DNA of 64,000 nucleotides from Candidatus Kapaibacterium sp. (GTDB lineage: Bacteria; Patescibacteriota; Patescibacteriia; UBA9934). This document shows positions 513-62,994 of this stretch, in pieces. Both the position numbers and the translations under genes were made by a program. Every line of letters starts with the position of its first letter. Positions within the stretch are counted from its first letter, which is position 1. The stretch covers positions 242,295 to 306,294 of the forward strand of contig JBILHA010000002.1 of assembly GCA_044350705.1 (NCBI GenBank), written 5' to 3'. The notes beneath the pieces are model-generated. The model worked only from the letters and a program-made list of their open reading frames with translations. It searched no databases and had not been told where the DNA came from.

Positions 513-589
513 TGGTAGGCCTGCCTGGATTCGAACCAGGGACCGCCGAGGTATAAGCTCGGAGCTCTAACCAACTGAGCTACAGGCCC
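513..589 (-). tRNA. tRNA-Ile, anticodon UAU (genomically encoded TAT)
   Basis: Reverse complement reads GGGCCTGTAGCTCAGTTGGTTAGAGCTCCGAGCTTATACCTCGGCGGTCCCTGGTTCGAATCCAGGCAGGCCTACCA, which folds as a cloverleaf. Acceptor GGGCCTG/CAGGCCT, anticodon stem CCGAG/CTCGG, loop CTTATAC, T-loop TTCGAAT, CCA encoded. The 5-prime half and 3-prime end CAGGCCTACCA resemble bacterial tRNA-Ile. Confidence 0.88.
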
Positions 590-11124: not shown

Positions 11125-11327
11125 GGTCAAAAAGCACATCTTTTCTCTGGAAAAACAGTCCTTTGTGGCTGTTTTTTCTTTCTTTTTCAACGATCGCTTC
11201 TCTCTCATCGAGGCTCATCCTTGATTTTTTCACCTTTTTCTGGCATAGTCATGTCACTCAAAAGCCGCTCGGGTCACTCCGACCTCTGCGCTGATGAGCG
11301 ACCACCGAAGGAAAAGGACCAGCGACG

Positions 11328-11846
11328 TTGCAGCTCCATCACACCCCCCTCTTCCGTCGTCGCATCCCCCGCGGCAAGACCGGGAATACCGACCCGGTCA
11401 ACCGCCTCCGCCGAATGGCGGAGGCGGATGCCCGCCGCATCCGCGGCATGCTCTCCAAGACCCTCTCCAGCCGAGAGCGCGATGATCTGCAGGCGCTGCG
11501 CCGCCGGCTCGTCGATCTCCTCGCGCAGATGACCGAGCGCCCGTGGGATACCCCGGTGGGAGCCCACGAGGAGATCACCGGTACGATGGCCAAGGCGCGG
11601 CGGATCTACGCCCGCGCGCCCAAGCCCGACGGTCGCCGCCGGGCCAAGCGCCCGTCGGAGCAGAAGGGCGTCCGCGCCAAGAACCGGCCTATCGAGGATG
11701 GCCCGGAGGACCACCCCGATGAAGAGAACGAGAACGATCTCGACCGAAAGATCGCAGAGATCGTCCGGCGTTCTCGAGAGCCCCGCGCGGATCCCCGAGC
11801 CGAGGCCTTCTGGGCGGCCCAAGCGGCGGCGGCCACCAACAAGTAG
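11328..11846 (+). CDS. Hypothetical Arg-rich protein encoded in a high-GC island (about 65-70% GC versus 45-50% backbone)
   Basis: 172-aa ORF, charged and helical in character (LRRMAEADARRIRGMLSKTLSSRERDDLQALRRRLVDLLAQM...). Abrupt compositional shift 11270-11950. Own terminator downstream. ORFs on all frames here are GC artefacts; this is the longest sense-like one. Confidence 0.45.
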   Translation: MQLHHTPLFRRRIPRGKTGNTDPVNRLRRMAEADARRIRGMLSKTLSSRERDDLQALRRRLVDLLAQMTERPWDTPVGAHEEITGTMAKARRIYARAPKPDGRRRAKRPSEQKGVRAKNRPIEDGPEDHPDEENENDLDRKIAEIVRRSREPRADPRAEAFWAAQAAAATNK

Positions 11847-11914
11847 CCCCCCCGCGGGGGGAACCGCAACAGGCGGTCGGAGCGCACCGCGTTCCGACCG
11901 CCTCACGAACCCGT

Positions 11915-11957
11915 CCAGGGACTCGGCCGCAGCCGATGTCCCTGGATTTCGTTTTTA
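11915..11957 (+). terminator. Rho-independent terminator after the GC-island gene
   Basis: ccaggga-ctcggccgcagccgatg-tccctgg stem followed by atttcgtttttatt. Confidence 0.6.
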
Positions 11958-11979
11958 TTGAAAAAAATCCCTTACGGGA

Positions 11980-12383: not shown

Positions 12384-12840
12384 GCCTCATCGAGGCAAAC
12401 CCCCCACTCCGGCGCCTTGACGCCGGACTGCGAGAGAACCGTGCCCCTTCCTGACATCTTCGAGGTTCTTGAGGAGGAACTGCCTCCCCCGTGGCACCCA
12501 CAGCTGCGAAGCCTAAAGCTCCGCATCGGGCAGAGACCGGACAAGAGGGTGTCCGACCTGGTTCGAGAGGCTTTCTTTTACGAGCCGCGGAGGAACAAGC
12601 AACTGAGTCCATTTTTCAATGCCCGGGAAACCCGGGGGGTTCCCCTCCCCGAATACCTCGGCATGGATCCTGAAGTCCCCGAGGCAATTGCGAAAAGAGT
12701 ATGGGAGCGACTCATCTCGAATTCCTCCATCGTTGGTCCGCGGAACATGAGCGCTATCGTGAAACAAGGACTCGGGCTATAAAGCCCTTCCACATCCGGG
12801 CCGCTCCTCGCAAGGAGTCGGCCCGGATCGTTGTTTTTTT
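12384..12840 (+). ncRNA. Candidate GC-rich structured ncRNA or unknown transcript (about 450 nt) between a promoter and a terminator-like hairpin
   Basis: About 60% GC with many perfect local hairpins (ccggcg-ccttga-cgccgg, cccggg-aaa-cccggg, cctcgg...ccgagg). Terminal hairpin ccgggccgctcctcgcaaggagtcggcccgg (12796-12826) followed by a T-run 12834-12840. No convincing ORF on either strand. Confidence 0.3.
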
Positions 12841-12853
12841 AGAAAGTTCTTTA

Positions 12854-12882
12854 TTTACTTTCCATCATTTTTTTGATACTAT
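12854..12882 (+). promoter_or_regulatory. Candidate promoter TTTACT-17-TACTAT for RNase P RNA
   Basis: tttact (12854-12859), 17-nt spacer, tactat (12877-12882). Same -10 hexamer as the rRNA promoter. Predicted TSS coincides with the P1 5-prime strand. Confidence 0.5.
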
Positions 12883-12889
12883 TTCTCGA

Positions 12890-13463
12890 CCTGGCCAGCA
12901 AGACGATTGCCCCAAGAACTCAATCATAAGAAAGAGTGGGAGAACGTTCTTATTTTGGACTAGTTTCGGCGCGCGACGCTGCTTGGGTCGTCAAGACGTA
13001 CAAAATAGTACGTCGTCGACACAAGCAAGGAGCAAGCTGAAAATAGACGAAATAAGAACGTTCTCTTGGGGAGGAAAGTCCGAACACCCTTTATGCAGCA
13101 ATGCATATCGCAGAAAAGGCGTTGCTAACAGCAACCGCGCGTAAGCGTAGGGAAAGTCTCGTGCAAACGAAAGAATGCGCGGGGTCAGAACCTGCTGGAA
13201 ACGGCAGGCAATGACGCAACAGAGACATTCAAGCCCGCCCTGATTCGTTCGAGCGGGCAAAAGGTGAAACGTGTGGGGTGCGCAAGCTTCCCCACTCCCT
13301 GCATGGTGACATGCAGCGGTGGCAAACCCGCCTTGGTGCAAGAGCAAATTTGGTAGCTCGCGCTGAGCATGCTGGCGACAGCATGCCAAGAGAGATGATC
13401 GTCTCCCACTTCGCTCCTTCGGAGCTTCGTCGGGAACAGAATTCGGCTTATCAGTTGACCAGG
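12890..13463 (+). ncRNA. rnpB: RNase P RNA (bacterial type) with an unusually expanded 5-prime (P1-P3) region
   Basis: GGGGAGGAAAGTCCGAACACC (13068-13088; P4 5-prime strand) and ACAGAATTCGGCTTATCAG (13436-13454; P4 3-prime strand). GTGAAACG motif. P1 candidates cctggccag (12890-12898) / ttgaccagg (13455-13463). Core 13055-13463 is confident; the 5-prime boundary is less so. Confidence 0.7.
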
Positions 13464-13481
13464 TATGAAAAAATCCGTCGA

Positions 13482-50139: not shown

Positions 50140-50261
50140 GCACGGTTCTGGCGGCAACCTACTCTCGCCAACCTTGACTACCATCGGCTCACAAAGGCTT
50201 AACGGCCGTGTTCGGAATGGGAACGGGTGTGACCCTTTGGAAAGAACCACCAGAACCGTGC
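50140..50261 (-). rRNA. rrf: 5S ribosomal RNA
   Basis: Reverse complement contains CCCATTCCGAACACGGCCGTTAAGCC and GGTAGT motifs. About 120 nt. Terminator acagctcgaaagagctgt plus U-tract downstream (50108-50135). Confidence 0.85.
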
Positions 50262-50337
50262 GATCTTATGTGCTTCTCGCACAAGAATACTGATTGAAGA
50301 AATGCTTTTGCATTCGTCAGCCACCACGCGTTTTGCG

Positions 50338-53378
<3,041 letters not shown>

Positions 53379-56656: not shown

Positions 56657-57307
56657 TTATTCCTTGGGGATAGGTGTGAAACGCGACTGTTGTCCTTCTG
56701 GCGTTTCAACATGACCATAAAACTCTTCCTTGGGACGCACCCACCATTCTCCATTACGCAAAGATTCGTATACCACATGCTCACGCTCGTCGTTCGTATG
56801 CAGCGCCTCACCCACAATGCGATAGAAACCTCCTTTGAAATGTTTTACGATCTTTTTCTCTGGGAAAAATGCGTTGAATACTTTTTTAAAATCTGGGAGC
56901 GTTTTCAACTTTCTTACTTCGTCGATTGCTAACCACACGTAGTCTTGCGATTCCCGATCACGTGTTACGTTTTCTGCGGTGACTTCTACAAGTACCGCAT
57001 GCACGATCCACGTCTTTTTATTTTCCTCATCTTCTTGCGTGAAGATAGGACCGCGACGAATGTGTACTACATGATCAGATGGAATTCCTCCTTCTTCTTG
57101 CAATTCTTCAAGCACCTTTTCTTCAATCGTTTTTTCGTCATCAAGAAAGCCAGAAATGCCATTCCAGTGGTGCGGATGCAAATCCATTTTTACACCCCGC
57201 TGAATCATCAAGATTTTTCCTTCGCGATGCACGACACAATTCACCACCGGTGCGTAACGAATATTCGTATAATCAACTCTCCCTGATTTTGGAATAAATT
57301 CCGACAT
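56657..57307 (-). CDS. NUDIX hydrolase fused to a C-terminal DUF1653-like domain
   Basis: Nudix box GISGFLDDEKTIEEKVLEELQEEGGI. C-terminal FKGGFYRIVGEALHTNDEREHVVYESL. Start at the ATG 57307 avoids overlap with the structured element; the longer ORF to 57496 is rejected. Confidence 0.55.
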   Translation of the reverse strand: MSEFIPKSGRVDYTNIRYAPVVNCVVHREGKILMIQRGVKMDLHPHHWNGISGFLDDEKTIEEKVLEELQEEGGIPSDHVVHIRRGPIFTQEDEENKKTWIVHAVLVEVTAENVTRDRESQDYVWLAIDEVRKLKTLPDFKKVFNAFFPEKKIVKHFKGGFYRIVGEALHTNDEREHVVYESLRNGEWWVRPKEEFYGHVETPEGQQSRFTPIPKE

Positions 57308-57391: not shown

Positions 57392-57635
57392 GGAAAACGG
57401 TTTTATTTGGAGACAGTTTGGACCTGAAGAGGGAGGATTCACGAGCCGTACCAAAAATGTACGGTGAGCGAACAGGACCGATGAGCGTAAGGTCATAAGG
57501 CAAGAATTAAAAACATTTTTATTTTAGGCTAGTTTTGGCTCGCGACGCAGAAGGCGTCGTCAAGGCCTACTCAAATGTAGGCCGTCGACGCTTTCAAGGA
57601 GCATGACAAAAATAGACAAAATAAAAATGTTTTCC
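57392..57635 (+). ncRNA. Unclassified structured RNA element, copy 3 of 3 (about 244 nt; carries an extra multi-hairpin insertion), ends 3 nt before tRNA-Leu(UAG)
   Basis: 5-prime ggaaaacggttttatttgg (57392-57410) pairs with caaaataaaaatgttttcc (57617-57635). Shares the boxes GAAGAGGGAGGATT, ccgtac-caaaaat-gtacgg hairpin and GAGCGAACAGGACCGATGAG. Inserted hairpins gacgc-agaag-gcgtc and ggcctac-tcaaat-gtaggcc. Confidence 0.45.
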
Positions 57636-57638
57636 CGA

Positions 57639-57722
57639 GGGCGAGTGGTGGAATTGGTATACACGCATGTCTTAGGAACATGTGCTTCGTGCATGAGGGT
57701 TCGAGTCCCTCCTCGCCCACCA
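57639..57722 (+). tRNA. tRNA-Leu, anticodon UAG
   Basis: GGGCGAG...CTCGCCC-A-CCA acceptor. Anticodon stem CATGT/ACATG with loop CTTAGGA. Long variable arm. T-loop GGTTCGAGTCC. Confidence 0.88.
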
Positions 57723-57773
57723 ATGGATAGAAAAGAAGGGAGTGAGGGGAGTGAGGGGAGTTGGATGTGGCAA

Positions 57774-57798
57774 GGCGCTGAAAGGCGCTGTTTTTTTT
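57774..57798 (+). terminator. Terminator after tRNA-Leu(UAG)
   Basis: ggcgct-GAAA-ggcgc stem plus tttttttt. Confidence 0.55.
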
Positions 57799-57823
57799 AT
57801 TTTATCTTGCTTGGCGACAAAAC

Positions 57824-57852
57824 TTGCAAAAGTGCTCATTTTTTGCTATACT
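57824..57852 (+). promoter_or_regulatory. Candidate sigma70-like promoter TTGCAA-17-TATACT for the receiver-domain gene
   Basis: ttgcaa (57824-57829), 17-nt spacer, tatact (57847-57852). Confidence 0.5.
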
Positions 57853-57920
57853 TTCATGTCTCTCGATGGATCATTTCGATCTGTTGAGAACAAAGGACTG
57901 CCAAGTCCCTTGGAGGGAAT

Positions 57921-58292
57921 ATGGCAAATGTCATCTTTGTGGACGACGAGCCGCCCATTCGTAGGACGCTCGTTCGGCGCGCAACGAGGGGGCATGGCCT
58001 CGTGGCCCATGCCCCCTCCAGCCTCAGCGAGCTCCTCGAGCTCGCTGAGCAAAACCCCAGCGCGGTCGTCGTTTTCGACGGCAACTGCGCCGGGGCGTTC
58101 GAGGGCCTGAACGGGTGGGATCTGGTCCCCCTCCTTCGTGCCCGCGGCTGGACCGGTGAGGGCGTCGTCTTCACCGGCGCGCGGGATGAAAATATCCCGG
58201 CCTTCAGGAATGCCGGCCTTCCGGCCGAGCGGGTTTTTGACAAGCCCGAACTTAGCGATCTCTTTCAGCTCCTCGTGGAGCTCGCCAAGTAA
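57921..58292 (+). CDS. Single-domain response-regulator receiver (CheY-like) protein, orphan, encoded in a high-GC island
   Basis: 123 aa. DD (FVDDEP), phospho-acceptor Asp (VVFDGN), Thr (VVFTGA), Lys-Pro (FDKP). About 65% GC versus the backbone. Confidence 0.65.
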   Translation: MANVIFVDDEPPIRRTLVRRATRGHGLVAHAPSSLSELLELAEQNPSAVVVFDGNCAGAFEGLNGWDLVPLLRARGWTGEGVVFTGARDENIPAFRNAGLPAERVFDKPELSDLFQLLVELAK

Positions 58293-58510
58293 TTCCTTCC
58301 CGTGAGCACACCGCTGTGTGTCTCGCGGGTCGCTTCAACATGAGAACTCGCCTTCTCGTATTGAAACGACTTTTCCACAAGAACTTCTTTCCTCTGCTTC
58401 GCCCGTGATAAGGTGGTTTTGCAGACATCACTCCCCCGTCTCTTTGTTGAGATGTGTGGGAGTTTTGTTTTGTACGACGTCGTTCCTCTCATTCATTTAA
58501 CGTACTGCAC

Positions 58511-60766
58511 ATGCAACATCGCTATGTCGCACTCACCCTCCTTGCGTGCACATTCGCAACAGTGTCTCCTCTACGGACAACTGCGACCACTCTTCCCCCG
58601 GTCATCCTCTCGGAAATTAACTGGGGAGGATCTCCTCTTTCCACGGCAGACGAGTGGATTGAGCTTGCGAACACCACCACGCAAAATCTAGATATCAGCG
58701 CCTGGCGCATTGTCGGCGCTTCATCGCCGGAATCCCCTATTGTGATTCCTGCATCTACGATGCTTTCTCCGGGAGAAACGTATGTCATTGCAAACTATGC
58801 AGATACCGATGTGAAGTCGGTGCTCAACTTTGCTCCCGATCTTGTCAGTTCATCCGTGAGCATCCCCAATACTTCGCTTGCGATTACTTTGTATGACCCT
58901 GCCGGAGTAATCGTCGATACGTATATCGACACGGGAACTCCGGAATTTGGTAGCTCTTCTCTTCATGCGAGCATGGAAAGGAGTCTCGTGACCGGAGCCT
59001 GGGAAAGCGCGCAATATGCACTTCATGTAGATAGCGCTGAAATGCTCGGATCACCTGGCGCTCTCTCTGCCTCTTCCGCGACTCATGAAGCTCAGCCTTC
59101 CCCTGAAAGCTATCCACCTCTTCCGCCATGCTCACCTCTTCCCTCATCGCCGCAAGAGATACCTGAAACAACATCCACTGATGCACAAAGCATATCCGAG
59201 GAGGAGCATGCGGAACCTCCTCAGGAAAGTTCAGATTCTGAGACATCTCCTGAGATTACGCTCATTGCACTAGTTACCCAGGAGTCAGTTACTGATGCGC
59301 AGGATTCTTCTCCATCGTCTCCGGTATCTGAAGTCCTCACCGACGTCGAAACTCCGCATACCAAGACGGAAGCAGAAGACTCTGAAGATGAAGCGGATAC
59401 ACAAACAGAAGCTCCTCTTCGCACCGTTGATTACCACTCGCTTCGTATTACCGAGTTTGTCAGCGATCCGCTCGATGGAAAAGAGTTTATTGAACTCTTC
59501 AATGCGGGAAGAGAAGCCCTTCCCTTGGAAGGCGTACATATTGCAGATGCTTCTGGCAAACGCACATCTCTCTCTGGAGAAATCGCTGCCGGCGCTTACC
59601 TTGTCATAGAAAATCCCCTTGGAAAGCTCAACAACGATGGAGATGCTCTTGTCCTTCTTCTTCCGGATGACCAAACGCTCTTTACGCTTTCGTATGGTAC
59701 TAACACCTTCCCTGCTCCCAAAAAAGGCTTCTCCGCAGGAGTTTGTGCGGATCTTTGGATGACCACCCTCTCTCCTTCTCCTGGACAAGAAAATATTTGC
59801 TCTTCACCTTCTCTTTCTTATGAAACATCAGAAACGTCAACGCCCGCAATCGACCGCGGCAGTACCTCTTCGGGAACTTCTTCATCCGTTCAAGGAAATG
59901 TTTCTTCTGCGAAAACAGAAAGCACAGATGTCACCGATGTTGCGCCTGCGCAATCCGTAGTGGTTACTCACGCAGCATACACCGCACCTGGTTCATCTCA
60001 CATGGATAGCCAATCTGGATCTTCTTCTGCAAAAAAGAAAACTTCCAAAAGCACTCCCGTAGAAACGACTCTTGATGCGCTTGAAACCCTTTCCTCAGGT
60101 CAGGTCGTTGAAGTTACCGGCACGCTTATTGCTACTCCTGGCATGCTTGGAAAACGTGTTGCGTATCTTGATGGCGTGCAACTCTACTTCCATAAAGCCA
60201 CATGGCCAGATCTGTCACTTGGAGATCAGGTGCGCATTACCGGAACATGGGACTACCAGGAAGGTGTACGGAGAATAAAAATTTCCGATGCAGAAAACAT
60301 TACCGTTCTTGGGAATGCACCTCTCACGCCACGTGCTTGGGAAGATATTCCTCAAGATGAGCGAGGGGACATTCTTGCTTCCGCGAACGGTACGCTTCTG
60401 AGAAAAGATGGAGATGCATTTATCTTCTCCTTGCAAAGCACTCAAGCAGAAATTGTCGTTGTTGATTTGGGGAAGACTGGTGCTCTCTCTTTACTGCGCA
60501 CGGGAGATGCTGTTTCTCTGACTGGCATTCGTTTGCCGCATGATGGGAGAATTGTCCTCGTTCCTCGAAGCGCTGATGACGTGGTCAAGGCATCCTCTCC
60601 TTCACTTCATGAGGAAGGATCGGAACATGCGTCGGGTATACTCACTTCTTCGACGCCCCCTTCCCCTGCACCTCTTATTGGCGGAGGCATTCTCATGAGT
60701 AGCATGGGTGCACTTAGTTATTGGTTTATTCGTTCGAAAAAATATTCATTCTTATTCTCATCATAA
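58511..60766 (+). CDS. Lamin-tail-domain (LTD) surface protein with Ser/Thr/Glu-rich linker and C-terminal TM anchor
   Basis: Signal peptide; ILSEINWGGSPLSTADEWIELANTT LTD signature; second LTD-like ITEFVSDPLDGKEFIELFN; C-terminal LIGGGILMSSMGALSYWFI. Confidence 0.6.
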   Translation: MQHRYVALTLLACTFATVSPLRTTATTLPPVILSEINWGGSPLSTADEWIELANTTTQNLDISAWRIVGASSPESPIVIPASTMLSPGETYVIANYADTDVKSVLNFAPDLVSSSVSIPNTSLAITLYDPAGVIVDTYIDTGTPEFGSSSLHASMERSLVTGAWESAQYALHVDSAEMLGSPGALSASSATHEAQPSPESYPPLPPCSPLPSSPQEIPETTSTDAQSISEEEHAEPPQESSDSETSPEITLIALVTQESVTDAQDSSPSSPVSEVLTDVETPHTKTEAEDSEDEADTQTEAPLRTVDYHSLRITEFVSDPLDGKEFIELFNAGREALPLEGVHIADASGKRTSLSGEIAAGAYLVIENPLGKLNNDGDALVLLLPDDQTLFTLSYGTNTFPAPKKGFSAGVCADLWMTTLSPSPGQENICSSPSLSYETSETSTPAIDRGSTSSGTSSSVQGNVSSAKTESTDVTDVAPAQSVVVTHAAYTAPGSSHMDSQSGSSSAKKKTSKSTPVETTLDALETLSSGQVVEVTGTLIATPGMLGKRVAYLDGVQLYFHKATWPDLSLGDQVRITGTWDYQEGVRRIKISDAENITVLGNAPLTPRAWEDIPQDERGDILASANGTLLRKDGDAFIFSLQSTQAEIVVVDLGKTGALSLLRTGDAVSLTGIRLPHDGRIVLVPRSADDVVKASSPSLHEEGSEHASGILTSSTPPSPAPLIGGGILMSSMGALSYWFIRSKKYSFLFSS

Positions 60767-61309: not shown

Positions 61310-61366
61310 TTTACTCTTCTTTGATTTGTTTTAACATAGGTTCGTCCAAGCCTCGAAATCTCCTAG

Positions 61367-61391
61367 CAACTGAACGAACTTAGCAACGAAT
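61367..61391. repeat. Module M2 copy B (caactgaacgaacttagcaacgaat)
   Basis: Matches 761-785. Confidence 0.6.
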
Positions 61392-61457
61392 TTCACTCTT
61401 CTGGTTCCTTTGCGAGAAAGGAATAAGATGGGATGAAATTCGTGGGATACTATACTT

Positions 61458-62540
61458 ATGGAACCAGAAAACGTCAATAAAGGAAAGTGGGCATACTTTT
61501 TGGTGAGCATTCTCGGAATGACCGTCTTTTTTGGAATGTTTGCTTTTCTTCCCGAGACCGTCGTCGCTCCTCTTTCTTCAGATACCGATCTTTCTTCGCA
61601 ACTCCCTGATTTCGGCAAGCCCCTTGATCGCTCGCCTTCCCATGAACCCGTCCCTTCCGAACCCTCATCCGTTCGTCTCGTTTTCACAGGAGACATTATG
61701 CTTGCTCGCGCAGTTGAATGGGCGATACGCGCAGAGGGTCCTGAATATCCGTTTTTACGCTGGGAGAGCGGGGAGTTTTTAGATGCTGACGCGGTAATTG
61801 GGAATTTTGAAGGGACGATTCGCGCGACGGAAAACATTGAGCAAACAAATGTGATGGCATTTGATACCTTGCCTACCTCTATTCCTGCACTCAAAAATGC
61901 AGGATTCACTCATCTTTCCCTTTCCAATAATCACTCCGATGATTTTGGAGAAGAAGTTGCTGAGTTCACGAGATCGACCATTTTTGAAAGCGGCATGATT
62001 CCTTTTGGAGATCCATTTGCAAGTGAGAAATTTGTTACTCGTATTGAAGGCGGTATTCCTGTTTCGATCATTGGATTTCACGCATTTAATGAAACGGCGG
62101 AAAGCATTTTTCAGGCGATTCAAGAAGAGGATGCGGCTGGAAACTTTGTCATCGTCTATCCGCACTGGGGAAACGAGTATGAGCATTCCCCTTCCCCTGC
62201 ACAAACTTCTGCAGCGCAATTGTGGATTGAGGCGGGCGCAGATCTCATTGTTGGCGCGCATCCGCATGTAGTACAAAGCGTAGATACGATCGATGGCGTT
62301 CCGGTAATTTATTCCTTGGGCAATTTCCTATTTGATCAGGATTTTTCACGCGCTACACAGGTAGGAGCCTTTGCAGATGTAGTGATTTCCGATGACGAAA
62401 TTTCTTTGTCGTTTTCTCCGGTAGAGATTCGTTCACGACAAATGTTTATCAACCACGAAGAAAACGAACAACTTCTTTCGTGGCTTGGGCTTTCGGATCT
62501 TACTTGGAACGTTCCACGAGAAGAAGTCCAAACGCCTTAA
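61458..62540 (+). CDS. CapA-family metallophosphatase-like protein (poly-gamma-glutamate capsule synthesis family)
   Basis: N-terminal TM; metallophosphoesterase-like motifs (GDIML, GNHS-like NNHSDDFG, GAHPHV). Confidence 0.6.
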   Translation: MEPENVNKGKWAYFLVSILGMTVFFGMFAFLPETVVAPLSSDTDLSSQLPDFGKPLDRSPSHEPVPSEPSSVRLVFTGDIMLARAVEWAIRAEGPEYPFLRWESGEFLDADAVIGNFEGTIRATENIEQTNVMAFDTLPTSIPALKNAGFTHLSLSNNHSDDFGEEVAEFTRSTIFESGMIPFGDPFASEKFVTRIEGGIPVSIIGFHAFNETAESIFQAIQEEDAAGNFVIVYPHWGNEYEHSPSPAQTSAAQLWIEAGADLIVGAHPHVVQSVDTIDGVPVIYSLGNFLFDQDFSRATQVGAFADVVISDDEISLSFSPVEIRSRQMFINHEENEQLLSWLGLSDLTWNVPREEVQTP

Positions 62541-62994
62541 GTGCCGCTTCAGTTCCTGGACGCTTGGGTGCCCACATGCCTTCAAGGAGTTCATACGGGC
62601 TTCCCCAACGCACGGCGTCGAATTCTCGATGATGTGCGTCGAGATTGAATTCGACCGCGCCGGAAAACATGGCGAGAAAGAAATGTTGTTCTTGGCCGAT
62701 ATATGTTTCGTTTGGATACTGTGCGCGAGATTGTTCGAGATATTCTTTTGGCCACTCGTAACAAAAGGTTTGATCAAGTTGATCGATAATTTCAAAATCT
62801 TCTTTTGCAACTCCGAGCTCTTCCATCATTTCGCGCTCTGCGGCCTCGCGGGGAGTTTCTCCCGGATCTATTCCTCCTTGGACGGTTTGCACTGTTTTAT
62901 CTGCGTATCCTGGAAACCCTCTTTCACATAACAAGACTTCGCCCTTTTCGTTTGTCACAATAACTGCCGCATTTGGTCGGAAAAGATTTTGCAT
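62500..62994 (-). CDS. NUDIX hydrolase (RppH-like)
   Basis: Nudix box GGIDPGETPREAAEREMMEELGV. Confidence 0.7.
   Translation of the reverse strand: MQNLFRPNAAVIVTNEKGEVLLCERGFPGYADKTVQTVQGGIDPGETPREAAEREMMEELGVAKEDFEIIDQLDQTFCYEWPKEYLEQSRAQYPNETYIGQEQHFFLAMFSGAVEFNLDAHHREFDAVRWGSPYELLEGMWAPKRPGTEAALKAFGLLLVERSK

Follow-up and report, generated by a model that had tools for sequence, protein, structure and literature searches.

The subject of this study is a GC-rich gene in a 64,000-nucleotide stretch of DNA from a member of the Patescibacteriota (deposited as Candidatus Kapaibacterium sp., contig JBILHA010000002.1, positions 242,295 to 306,294), which is referred to here as the window and from whose first nucleotide all positions are counted. 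The gene is an open reading frame (ORF) at 57921-58292 on the plus strand, and its 123-residue product is called version A. It stands in a slot bounded on the left by a tRNA-Leu(UAG) gene (57639-57722, plus strand; called by ARAGORN and Rfam) and on the right by a conserved regulatory box (TTTTCCACAAGAAC) and leader (58372-58510, plus strand) that precede the gene of a 751-residue lamin-tail-domain (LTD; Pfam PF00932) surface protein (58511-60766, plus strand). The ORF is a real gene, its product is a stand-alone receiver domain of highly diverged sequence, and related contigs, numbered with the prefix L, carry other versions of it in the same slot.

The receiver ORF differs strongly in composition from its surroundings. 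Its GC content is 64.5% (0.72, 0.44 and 0.77 at the first, second and third codon positions, the last being GC3) in a window of 48.7% GC, which is about 3.7 standard deviations (sd) in GC and about 4.3 sd in GC3 above the 59 window ORFs of at least 100 aa (GC mean 0.487, sd 0.043; GC3 mean 0.463, sd 0.073). The GC profile rises at about 57940 and falls at about 58330, and the codon usage of the ORF fits the window worse than that of 52 of 52 reference genes (z -3.1). Only one further outlier in composition occurs in the window, at about 11.2-11.96 kb. An earlier note on this DNA had described a coding sequence of about 65% GC in DNA of about 48% GC, encoding a 123-residue receiver with the full signature and lying directly after tRNA-Leu(UAG) behind a promoter of the form TTGCAA-17-TATACT, and had proposed a check of codon adaptation; all of these features were recovered, and the codon usage proved atypical as just described. 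Its report that neither a kinase or Hpt gene nor an att repeat accompanies the receiver also held. No histidine kinase, Hpt, integrase, transposase or reverse transcriptase domain was found in window ORFs of at least 100 aa, nor in the called genes of the roughly 4 kb past the right end of the window, and a search of the window for a direct repeat of the tRNA 3′ end returned nothing better than matches of 10-14 nt at 79-90% identity.

Version A carries the signature residues of receiver domains (D8, D9, D53, T85 and K108-P109) at the canonical positions, and the Pfam Response_reg model (PF00072) matches its residues 4-113 with 24.8 bits (E 2.5e-5). AlphaFold predicts a (beta-alpha)5 fold from an 18-sequence alignment (predicted local distance difference test, pLDDT, 84; predicted template modelling score, pTM, 0.81) and the same five strands and five helices from the single sequence (pLDDT 77.6, pTM 0.73), the receiver fold being demonstrated by model for version A only. 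When both models were compared with the PDB by Foldseek, all 50 matches listed were receiver domains (TM 0.54-0.78), among them those of CheY, Spo0F, DivK and KdpE. A profile built from five versions matches 52 PDB sequences, all of them receiver domains except for one de novo designed protein. Among the other versions, the Pfam model scores 22.6 bits for B and 18.1 bits for E, finds no match in D, F or G, and clears its gathering cut-off only in C (36.2 bits). The phospho-acceptor pocket of B is equivalent to that of A, while C has D8-D10, D49, S80 and K103-P104, and E has E8, D9, D10, D51, S78 and K100; the pocket is mostly kept in F as well, and a receiver-like ORF with a mostly intact pocket is present in five of the seven versions. 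Patescibacteria possess very few two-component proteins and no flagellar or chemotaxis genes (PMC7137472), and for this reason the label "CheY-like chemotaxis" is unlikely to be literal. The likely role, for which DtcB of the Detocs system offers a precedent, is that of a free phospho-acceptor that would serve as a phosphate sink, connector or protein-binding module, and its kinase or partner would be encoded elsewhere in the genome.

The ORF is part of a self-contained module of about 580 bp that travels with it and consists of promoter, 5′ untranslated region (UTR), ORF and two 3′ hairpins. The left arm (57799-57852, plus strand) is predicted to comprise a T-rich stretch and a sigma-70-type promoter, with the -35 element TTGCAA at 57824-57829, a 17-nt spacer, a TGn extension and the -10 element TATACT at 57847-57852. 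A promoter scan alone performed no better than chance (1 site versus 0.9 expected), but the call gains support from its conservation, since the -35 element, 17-nt spacer and extended -10 recur in all seven related modules. The -35 element and the spacing are invariant in the five modules A-E, the -10 element varies (TATACT in A and B, TATGAT in C, TAAGAT in D and E), and the promoters of L019 and L022 are analogous (TTGnnn-17-TGnTAnACT). The transcript would start near 57859 and open with a stem-loop (57858-57891, plus strand) that is near-invariant in modules A-E, the two changes seen both being wobble-compatible; the whole 5′UTR stretch 57858-57930 folds with a z of -4.3. Immediately downstream, a predicted hairpin (57899-57926, plus strand) would sequester the Shine-Dalgarno (SD) sequence by pairing an anti-SD UCCCU with GGAGGG (57912-57917) and UGCCA with the start-codon region. 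As judged by eye, this pairing is kept in A, B, C and E via wobble or changed bases and is degenerate in D. In version B the start codon is GTG, and F and G have CTG exactly at the site of the ATG of A, 3 nt past the SD sequence. For C, D and E, gene callers had chosen an upstream in-frame ATG; it was rejected as the start, since A and B have it in another frame and it lacks an SD sequence.

The right arm consists of two adjacent hairpins on the plus strand, the GC-rich HP1 (58300-58328) and HP2 (58329-58370), which together fold with -35.6 kcal/mol (z -5.85). Their stems are invariant in A-E, the loop of HP2 is variable, and L019 (z -8.4) and L022 (z -4.4) have two hairpins in the same arrangement but of different sequence. 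HP2, which is followed by CUUUUCC with its short U tract, is probably the terminator of the module. The regulatory roles assigned here to the UTR elements and hairpins draw on predicted folds and conservation, and searches of Rfam with the UTR, the hairpins and the LTD leader found no family. The gene is probably expressed. Upstream of the module, a purine-rich tandem repeat, (GGGAGTGAGG)n (57738-57761, plus strand), lies between tRNA-Leu and its terminator-like sequence, a stem at 57774-57789 with a T run to 57798 (plus strand), and module-less relatives show a similar purine-rich repeat and terminator after the tRNA. The copy number and unit sequence of the repeat depend on the strain (window 57738-57761; L006 1-30; L010 about 1995-2020), and assemblies are likely to break here, as contigs L006 and L012 both start within the repeat.

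Among relatives, the tRNA-Leu(UAG) landmark is conserved throughout (and identical in L010 and L014), and the slot to its right holds seven versions of the receiver, A-G, which are 13-56% identical and all GC-rich (55-64.5% GC, GC3 0.60-0.77, in loci of 44-50% GC), with intact ORFs of 114-140 codons. Receivers differ between strains that are 97-99% identical in the flanks. Version B (protein P0002, contig L006) lies in the same synteny as in the window and, at 121 aa with its start corrected, is 54-56% identical to A; over 5.4 kb, the flanks of L006 and the window are about 98% identical and the ORFs 59-73% identical at the DNA level. Synonymous (dS) and nonsynonymous (dN) divergence between A and B are 0.53 and 0.37, versus 0.041 and 0.016 in the adjacent LTD gene, both being 10-20 times the flank values, and the differences include all substitution types and indels, with adenines conserved. 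Version C (L010, L011 and L012) is 21% identical to A and stands beside an LTD protein that is 97% identical (dS 0.046). The contig L014, which was found by a DNA-anchor scan of metagenomes and represents a sister species (TMEM43 97% identical, dS 0.31), has after the tRNA two complete tandem modules, D and E, both equipped with a separate promoter, UTR and set of hairpins; their receivers are 16-32% identical to A, B and C. Version F (114 aa, 60.9% GC; hhalign probability 94% against the five-version profile) is carried by L019 and L020, in a lineage whose TMEM43 is 68% identical to that of the window, and a degenerate version G (57% GC) by L022, a contig that begins inside an HP1-like hairpin.

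The module, with its atypical composition, is present in L006, L010, L014, L019 and L022 and absent from L015, L016 and L018 (LTD protein 42-47% identical), in which the tRNA is followed by the LTD leader. Because these three loci are syntenic, the gene is an insertion relative to their arrangement. In L021 the left T-rich part is fused to half of HP1 plus HP2, a junction that looks like a deletion scar. Homology of the loci of versions B-E with the window, as detected by blastn, stops at 57926 and resumes at 58295, almost exactly delimiting the ORF, and the shared flanks include the -35 element, spacer, 5′ stem-loop, SD region, both 3′ hairpins and the LTD leader. These flanks are themselves mosaic, in that both L014 promoters share one -10 variant and C and E share the variable part of the 5′UTR, a pattern that argues for recombination and concerted evolution of the flanks. 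The versions are also deep: apart from A and B, all pairs are at or near synonymous saturation, as compared with a dS of 0.04-0.07 between strains and 0.31 to the sister species. A matches base for base in five samples and C in three, so that hypermutation is not ongoing on that time scale, and since the lineage with TMEM43 68% identical also holds a GC-rich receiver, high GC is a long-maintained property of the gene rather than the mark of an unameliorated import. The slot is old and dynamic, with modules present, absent, scarred or doubled.

Assembly artefacts do not explain the gene. A protein identical to version A is encoded on eight contigs, and five loci, each retrieved from an independent assembly (JGI, ENA or Logan), are 99.97-100% identical to the window in DNA; the version A DNA itself is 100% identical in five independent assemblies, and that of version C in three. 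Assembly chimera and contamination were ruled out by this identity, in agreement with the earlier note. No donor was found among approximately 15 billion proteins, nor did the searches reveal a wider family. HMMER, run exhaustively against 1.84 billion cluster representatives, returned one true relative, version B (E 7e-25), and otherwise generic receivers and other proteins at 29-39% identity with E 9e-6 or worse. A word-indexed search of 5.8 billion proteins and the five-version profile search recovered only the versions themselves, tblastn against phages and plasmids and a scan of viral contigs gave no matches, and the nearest relative of version C from outside is 32% identical to it. The flank modules occur once in the window and are absent from viral contigs. 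A high-GC donor was rejected, since all searches returned only the versions themselves or generic receivers. The interpretation given in the earlier note, that a foreign ORF had been integrated into a native, low-GC promoter context and that its closest relatives would be found in high-GC taxa, proved largely wrong when read as a recent insertion: the closest homologue is 56% identical, resides at the same locus in a sibling strain and is also GC-rich (60%), an outcome that the note itself had named as refuting; GC-rich receivers occupy the slot across lineages; and the AT-rich promoter and 5′UTR are absent from gene-less relatives and duplicated with the ORF in L014. Of the proposed tRNA-linked insertion, the part that survives is that the gene is inserted relative to the L015, L016 and L018 arrangement, although neither an att repeat nor an integrase attends it.

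The coding sequence is predicted to fold, as mRNA, into a chain of seven plus-strand hairpins (57986-58018, 58023-58049, 58059-58090, 58153-58177, 58182-58199, 58230-58248 and 58267-58282), six of which hold their position in version B. Such chains consist of 8-14-bp stems with 3-5-nt loops and make use of G-U pairs. Relative to dinucleotide shuffles, the folding z is -6.5 for A, -9.1 for B, -5.1 for C, -6.5 for E and -2.0 for D, and relative to synonymous shuffles, which keep both protein and codon usage, it is -4.0, -7.0, -3.9, -5.3 and -2.4, respectively; 16 control gene segments from the window gave a mean of +0.21 (sd 0.67, minimum -0.68). Of the 90 base pairs common to A and B, 19 have a wobble-compatible change on one side and 4 a change on both sides, and every change seen preserves pairing. 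Comparison of the two strands in A, B, C and E shows stronger folding for the sense strand each time (in E, z -6.5 versus -2.9 for the antisense); the margin is large in C and E, which also employ G-U pairs, and this suggests selection at the RNA level. These results point to selection on mRNA structure in the clade of the window. Selection of this kind favours synonymous G and C and therefore offers a non-foreign account of part of the GC island; the hairpin chain probably accounts for part of the GC excess.

On balance, we think it probable that the old tRNA-Leu/LTD slot is a locus of swappable receiver cassettes that is maintained by recombination. The module occupies a fixed slot, from tRNA-Leu(UAG) to the LTD leader, in one clade of Patescibacteria, and the versions would be long-lived cassette lineages, either alleles or paralogs derived from small tandem arrays, that may be sorted by unequal crossing-over between the repeated flanks and exchanged by homologous recombination. 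Selection would preserve the receiver fold and phospho-acceptor pocket in most versions and leave the remaining protein to diverge freely; in the clade of the window it may also have shaped the coding sequence into stable sense-strand hairpins, which would contribute to the high GC and GC3. The combination of preserved pocket, free divergence, discrete versions and copy-number change fits a specificity or conflict locus, which we offer as a hypothesis. Several observations count against the cassette account as a whole or in part. The sample is small, with seven versions from about a dozen contigs, and the versions may be either ancient exchanged alleles or differentially lost array paralogs, as both routes fit. 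Version A falls under the Pfam gathering cut-off of 30.2 bits, D and G are without most pocket residues, F and G start with the non-ATG codon CTG, and omega (dN/dS) between A and B is 0.69, so that parts of the family may be decaying. Many stems in the ORF are perfect Watson-Crick palindromes of 11-14 bp with 3-nt loops, and in A and B the antisense comes close to the sense in folding, which makes a DNA-level origin by template switching possible. The conservation of the hairpins shared by A and B is partly trivial, because they coincide with conserved protein motifs. Finally, structure cannot be the full explanation of the GC excess, because GC richness (GC3 about 0.73) is also seen in F and G, whose folding shows no excess (z -0.8 and -0.1). 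Biased gene conversion is a possible contributor (PMC4450053), but the LTD body, hypervariable between species and yet not GC-rich, counts against it as the sole cause.

The signs of decay just listed could be carried further, to a decaying orphan whose kinase was lost in genome reduction and whose strain differences are short imports by ordinary homologous recombination. Beyond omega, the CTG starts and the pockets missing from D and G, that explanation can draw on the sub-threshold Pfam scores of A, B and E, the lack of any match in D, F and G, the deletion scar in L021, other diverged patches between the window and L006 (e.g. 62320-62620), and the scarcity of two-component proteins in Patescibacteria (PMC7137472). 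It is nevertheless quite unlikely, in that intact ORFs of 114-140 codons with a pocket (in A, B, C, E and mostly F) have outlasted saturated divergence, conservation of promoter, SD hairpin and terminator extends to every module, the synonymous sites are arranged for mRNA structure, which is the opposite of neutral decay, and GC3 stands far above the genomic value that drift should have restored. Diversification in place by mutation, through template switching at quasi-palindromes or an element like a diversity-generating retroelement (DGR), is also rather unlikely. The hairpins and the divergence would then be footprints of the process, and the 10-20-fold excess of dS and dN over the flanks, the many perfect 11-14-bp palindromes with 3-nt spacers, the near-equal antisense folding of A and B, and the GC-rich hairpin just 3′ of the ORF, as at DGR targets, are all as expected; one-step formation of perfect hairpins and of multi-base changes is a known effect of template switching (PMC8794818). 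However, A is identical in five and C in three independent samples, the window contains neither a reverse transcriptase nor a template-repeat copy, the A/B differences span all bases and include indels with adenines conserved, and folding in C and E strongly favours the sense strand, with G-U pairs.

A structured RNA, possibly with a dual function, might instead be the main product and the receiver ORF secondary, as could be argued from the extreme folding z of A, B, C and E, the strong promoter, 5′ stem-loop and double 3′ hairpin, and the sequestered SD sequence. We judge this very unlikely: there is no Rfam match, a hairpin beside the most variable segment shifts between A and B, F and G are without excess structure, and a receiver-like ORF has been kept in five of the seven versions, which an RNA-only function does not require. 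Least probable, and only barely credible, is a single recent transfer from a high-GC donor to a tRNA-linked site under a native promoter. The atypical composition and codon usage, the position immediately 3′ of a tRNA and the lack of the module in syntenic L015, L016 and L018 are what such a transfer predicts, but no donor was found (the best matches other than B are 29-39% identical, E 9e-6 or worse), searches of phages, plasmids and viral contigs were empty, GC-rich receivers fill the slot of siblings and of the lineage with TMEM43 68% identical, the promoter and UTR belong to the module, and both integrase and att repeat are missing. An extension of the cassette account, in which hairpin-armoured, interchangeable receivers form a dedicated diversity locus, swapped via invariant flanks under frequency-dependent selection, is unlikely as well. 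If true, the receivers would act as decoy phospho-acceptors or specificity modules in phage, host or sibling conflict, and the hairpin chain would control mRNA stability or translation or be the substrate of diversification by template switching.

The right-hand neighbour of the slot has properties of its own, and the names of LTD homologues are the basis on which the analysis placed the DNA in Patescibacteria. The LTD leader shows 82% mean column identity over seven loci, some of them from genera in which LTD protein identity is about 45-50%, and in L018 it directly follows the tRNA. Its elements are an invariant TTTTCCACA box, a TGnTAAGGT motif, and a hairpin formed by ACTCCCCCGTCTC...GAGATGTGTGGGAGT that, with the U run behind it, resembles a leader terminator or attenuator; L016 shows one compensatory change. 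Between strains of the species of the window the LTD protein is about 96-97% identical (724-732 of 751 residues). Between the window and L014 (3338-5639) the LTD body is 52% identical (dS about 1.5), compared with about 91% for the signal-peptide region and leader and 97% (dS 0.31) for TMEM43, 2 kb upstream. LTD is a second hypervariable gene at this locus, one without GC excess. Low-identity patches (22-80%) also interrupt the 90-100% alignment of the window with L006 at 61320-61420 and 62320-62620, which suggests frequent recombinational import of short diverged fragments.

To the left, just 5′ of tRNA-Leu, a 124-nt hairpin (57510-57633; dG -52.9 kcal/mol, z -7.7) ends in perfect inverted repeats of 16 nt (AAAACATTTTTATTTT). 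The window and L014 have this hairpin, L021 has a diverged form, and L010, L015, L016, L018 and L019 lack it; it may be an insertion resembling a miniature inverted-repeat transposable element or a structured leader. The NUDIX-DUF1653 fusion gene farther left (56657-57307, minus strand) is rearranged in relatives: in L010 the sequence of window positions 56817-57059 is missing and the NUDIX gene encodes 189 aa, in L014 most of NUDIX-DUF1653 is gone, and in L015, L019 and L021 DUF1653 forms a separate small gene. The other high-GC island of the window (11221-11960, 70% GC) includes a plus-strand ORF (11328/11415-11846) whose GC3 of 0.845 suggests that plus is the true frame. Gene calls conflict here (143 aa on the plus strand in a JGI record; 210 aa on the minus strand in a JGI and NCBI record and a Logan contig). 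Downstream of the ORF come three GC-rich hairpins and a terminator (z -6.2 for the whole region, -1.9 for the ORF alone), searches of Pfam and phages gave no match to the ORF, and the island is identical in L009, the sole other contig compared. Elsewhere in the window, 23S and 5S rRNA genes (50146-53370, minus strand) lie next to a SPOUT methyltransferase gene on the other strand and have no adjacent 16S gene, which makes the rRNA operon an unlinked one. The tRNA-Ile at 513-589 (minus strand) has the anticodon UAU, an uncommon bacterial means of reading AUA. A class A RNase P RNA (13043-13466, plus strand; 103.7 bits, barely over the cut-off) is overlapped by called ORFs, namely 12701-13144 and the long start of the Bac_transf gene, and these calls are probably wrong in part.

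Receiver domains are usually among the most conserved and most recognisable signalling modules of bacteria. The receiver described here resembles a surface antigen or specificity locus, with versions that differ beyond recognition in strains 97-99% identical. A tRNA-adjacent island of unusual composition need not be foreign DNA, and detection of horizontal transfer by composition would misread such genes. If the diversity is adaptive, it would reveal an unrecognised role for orphan receivers in organisms that are poor in two-component proteins, and the module of about 580 bp would also be a compact natural system in which to study the interplay of coding sequence, mRNA structure and recombination.

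Among known systems, the stand-alone regulators CheY, Spo0F and DivK share with version A a receiver of about 120 aa with an acidic pair, phospho-Asp, Thr/Ser and Lys-Pro and no output domain; version A differs in falling under the Pfam cut-off and in being strain-hypervariable, GC-rich and laden with hairpins. We know of no such hypervariability, GC richness or hairpin load in CheY, Spo0F, DivK or DtcB, and the receiver of the slot, unlike these, has no kinase, Hpt or effector gene nearby. DtcB, of the Detocs defence system, is a receiver that can act purely as a phosphate sink (10.1101/2023.01.24.525353). A DtcB-type buffer was considered and rejected, as a PADLOC search for defence systems with five versions gave no match and the neighbours are a tRNA and the LTD gene, not a DtcA kinase or DtcC effector. 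With tRNA-linked islands the module has in common its position 3′ of a tRNA, atypical composition and presence or absence among relatives, but it is only about 0.58 kb long, holds one gene with its own promoter and terminator, is without integrase and att repeat, and belongs to a slot that many versions occupy across lineages (TMEM43 68% identical). Integron cassette arrays likewise consist of short single-ORF units in tandem, with imperfect inverted repeats at their ends and strain-variable content. Integron cassettes are typically promoterless, whereas each unit here has its own promoter and all units encode the same kind of protein; an integron origin was rejected, as the window has no IntI-type integrase, the units have promoters of their own, and HP2, by eye, matches the attC cores only in part (6/7 and 5/7).

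DGRs are frequent in bacteria of the candidate phyla radiation (CPR), and a GC-rich hairpin lies just 3′ of their targets. The slot is similar in that a hypervariable coding segment is followed by a GC-rich hairpin, but the whole ORF varies, with indels, and the versions are stable across samples. A DGR was rejected because the window contains no reverse transcriptase and no second ORF copy or template repeat, and because the differences show no adenine bias. In the agr groups of staphylococci and the comCD pherotypes of pneumococci, as in the slot, a signalling gene exists within one species in a small number of discrete forms that are stable and deeply diverged, and the conserved sequences that bound it permit homologous exchange. 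Their variable part is a peptide signal and the sensor domain of a kinase, not a receiver, and they are without the GC anomaly, tandem copy-number variation and hairpin-rich coding sequence found here. The locus combines known kinds, stand-alone receivers and allelic cassette loci, and what is new is a GC-rich, hairpin-laden, swappable form of them in a CPR slot.

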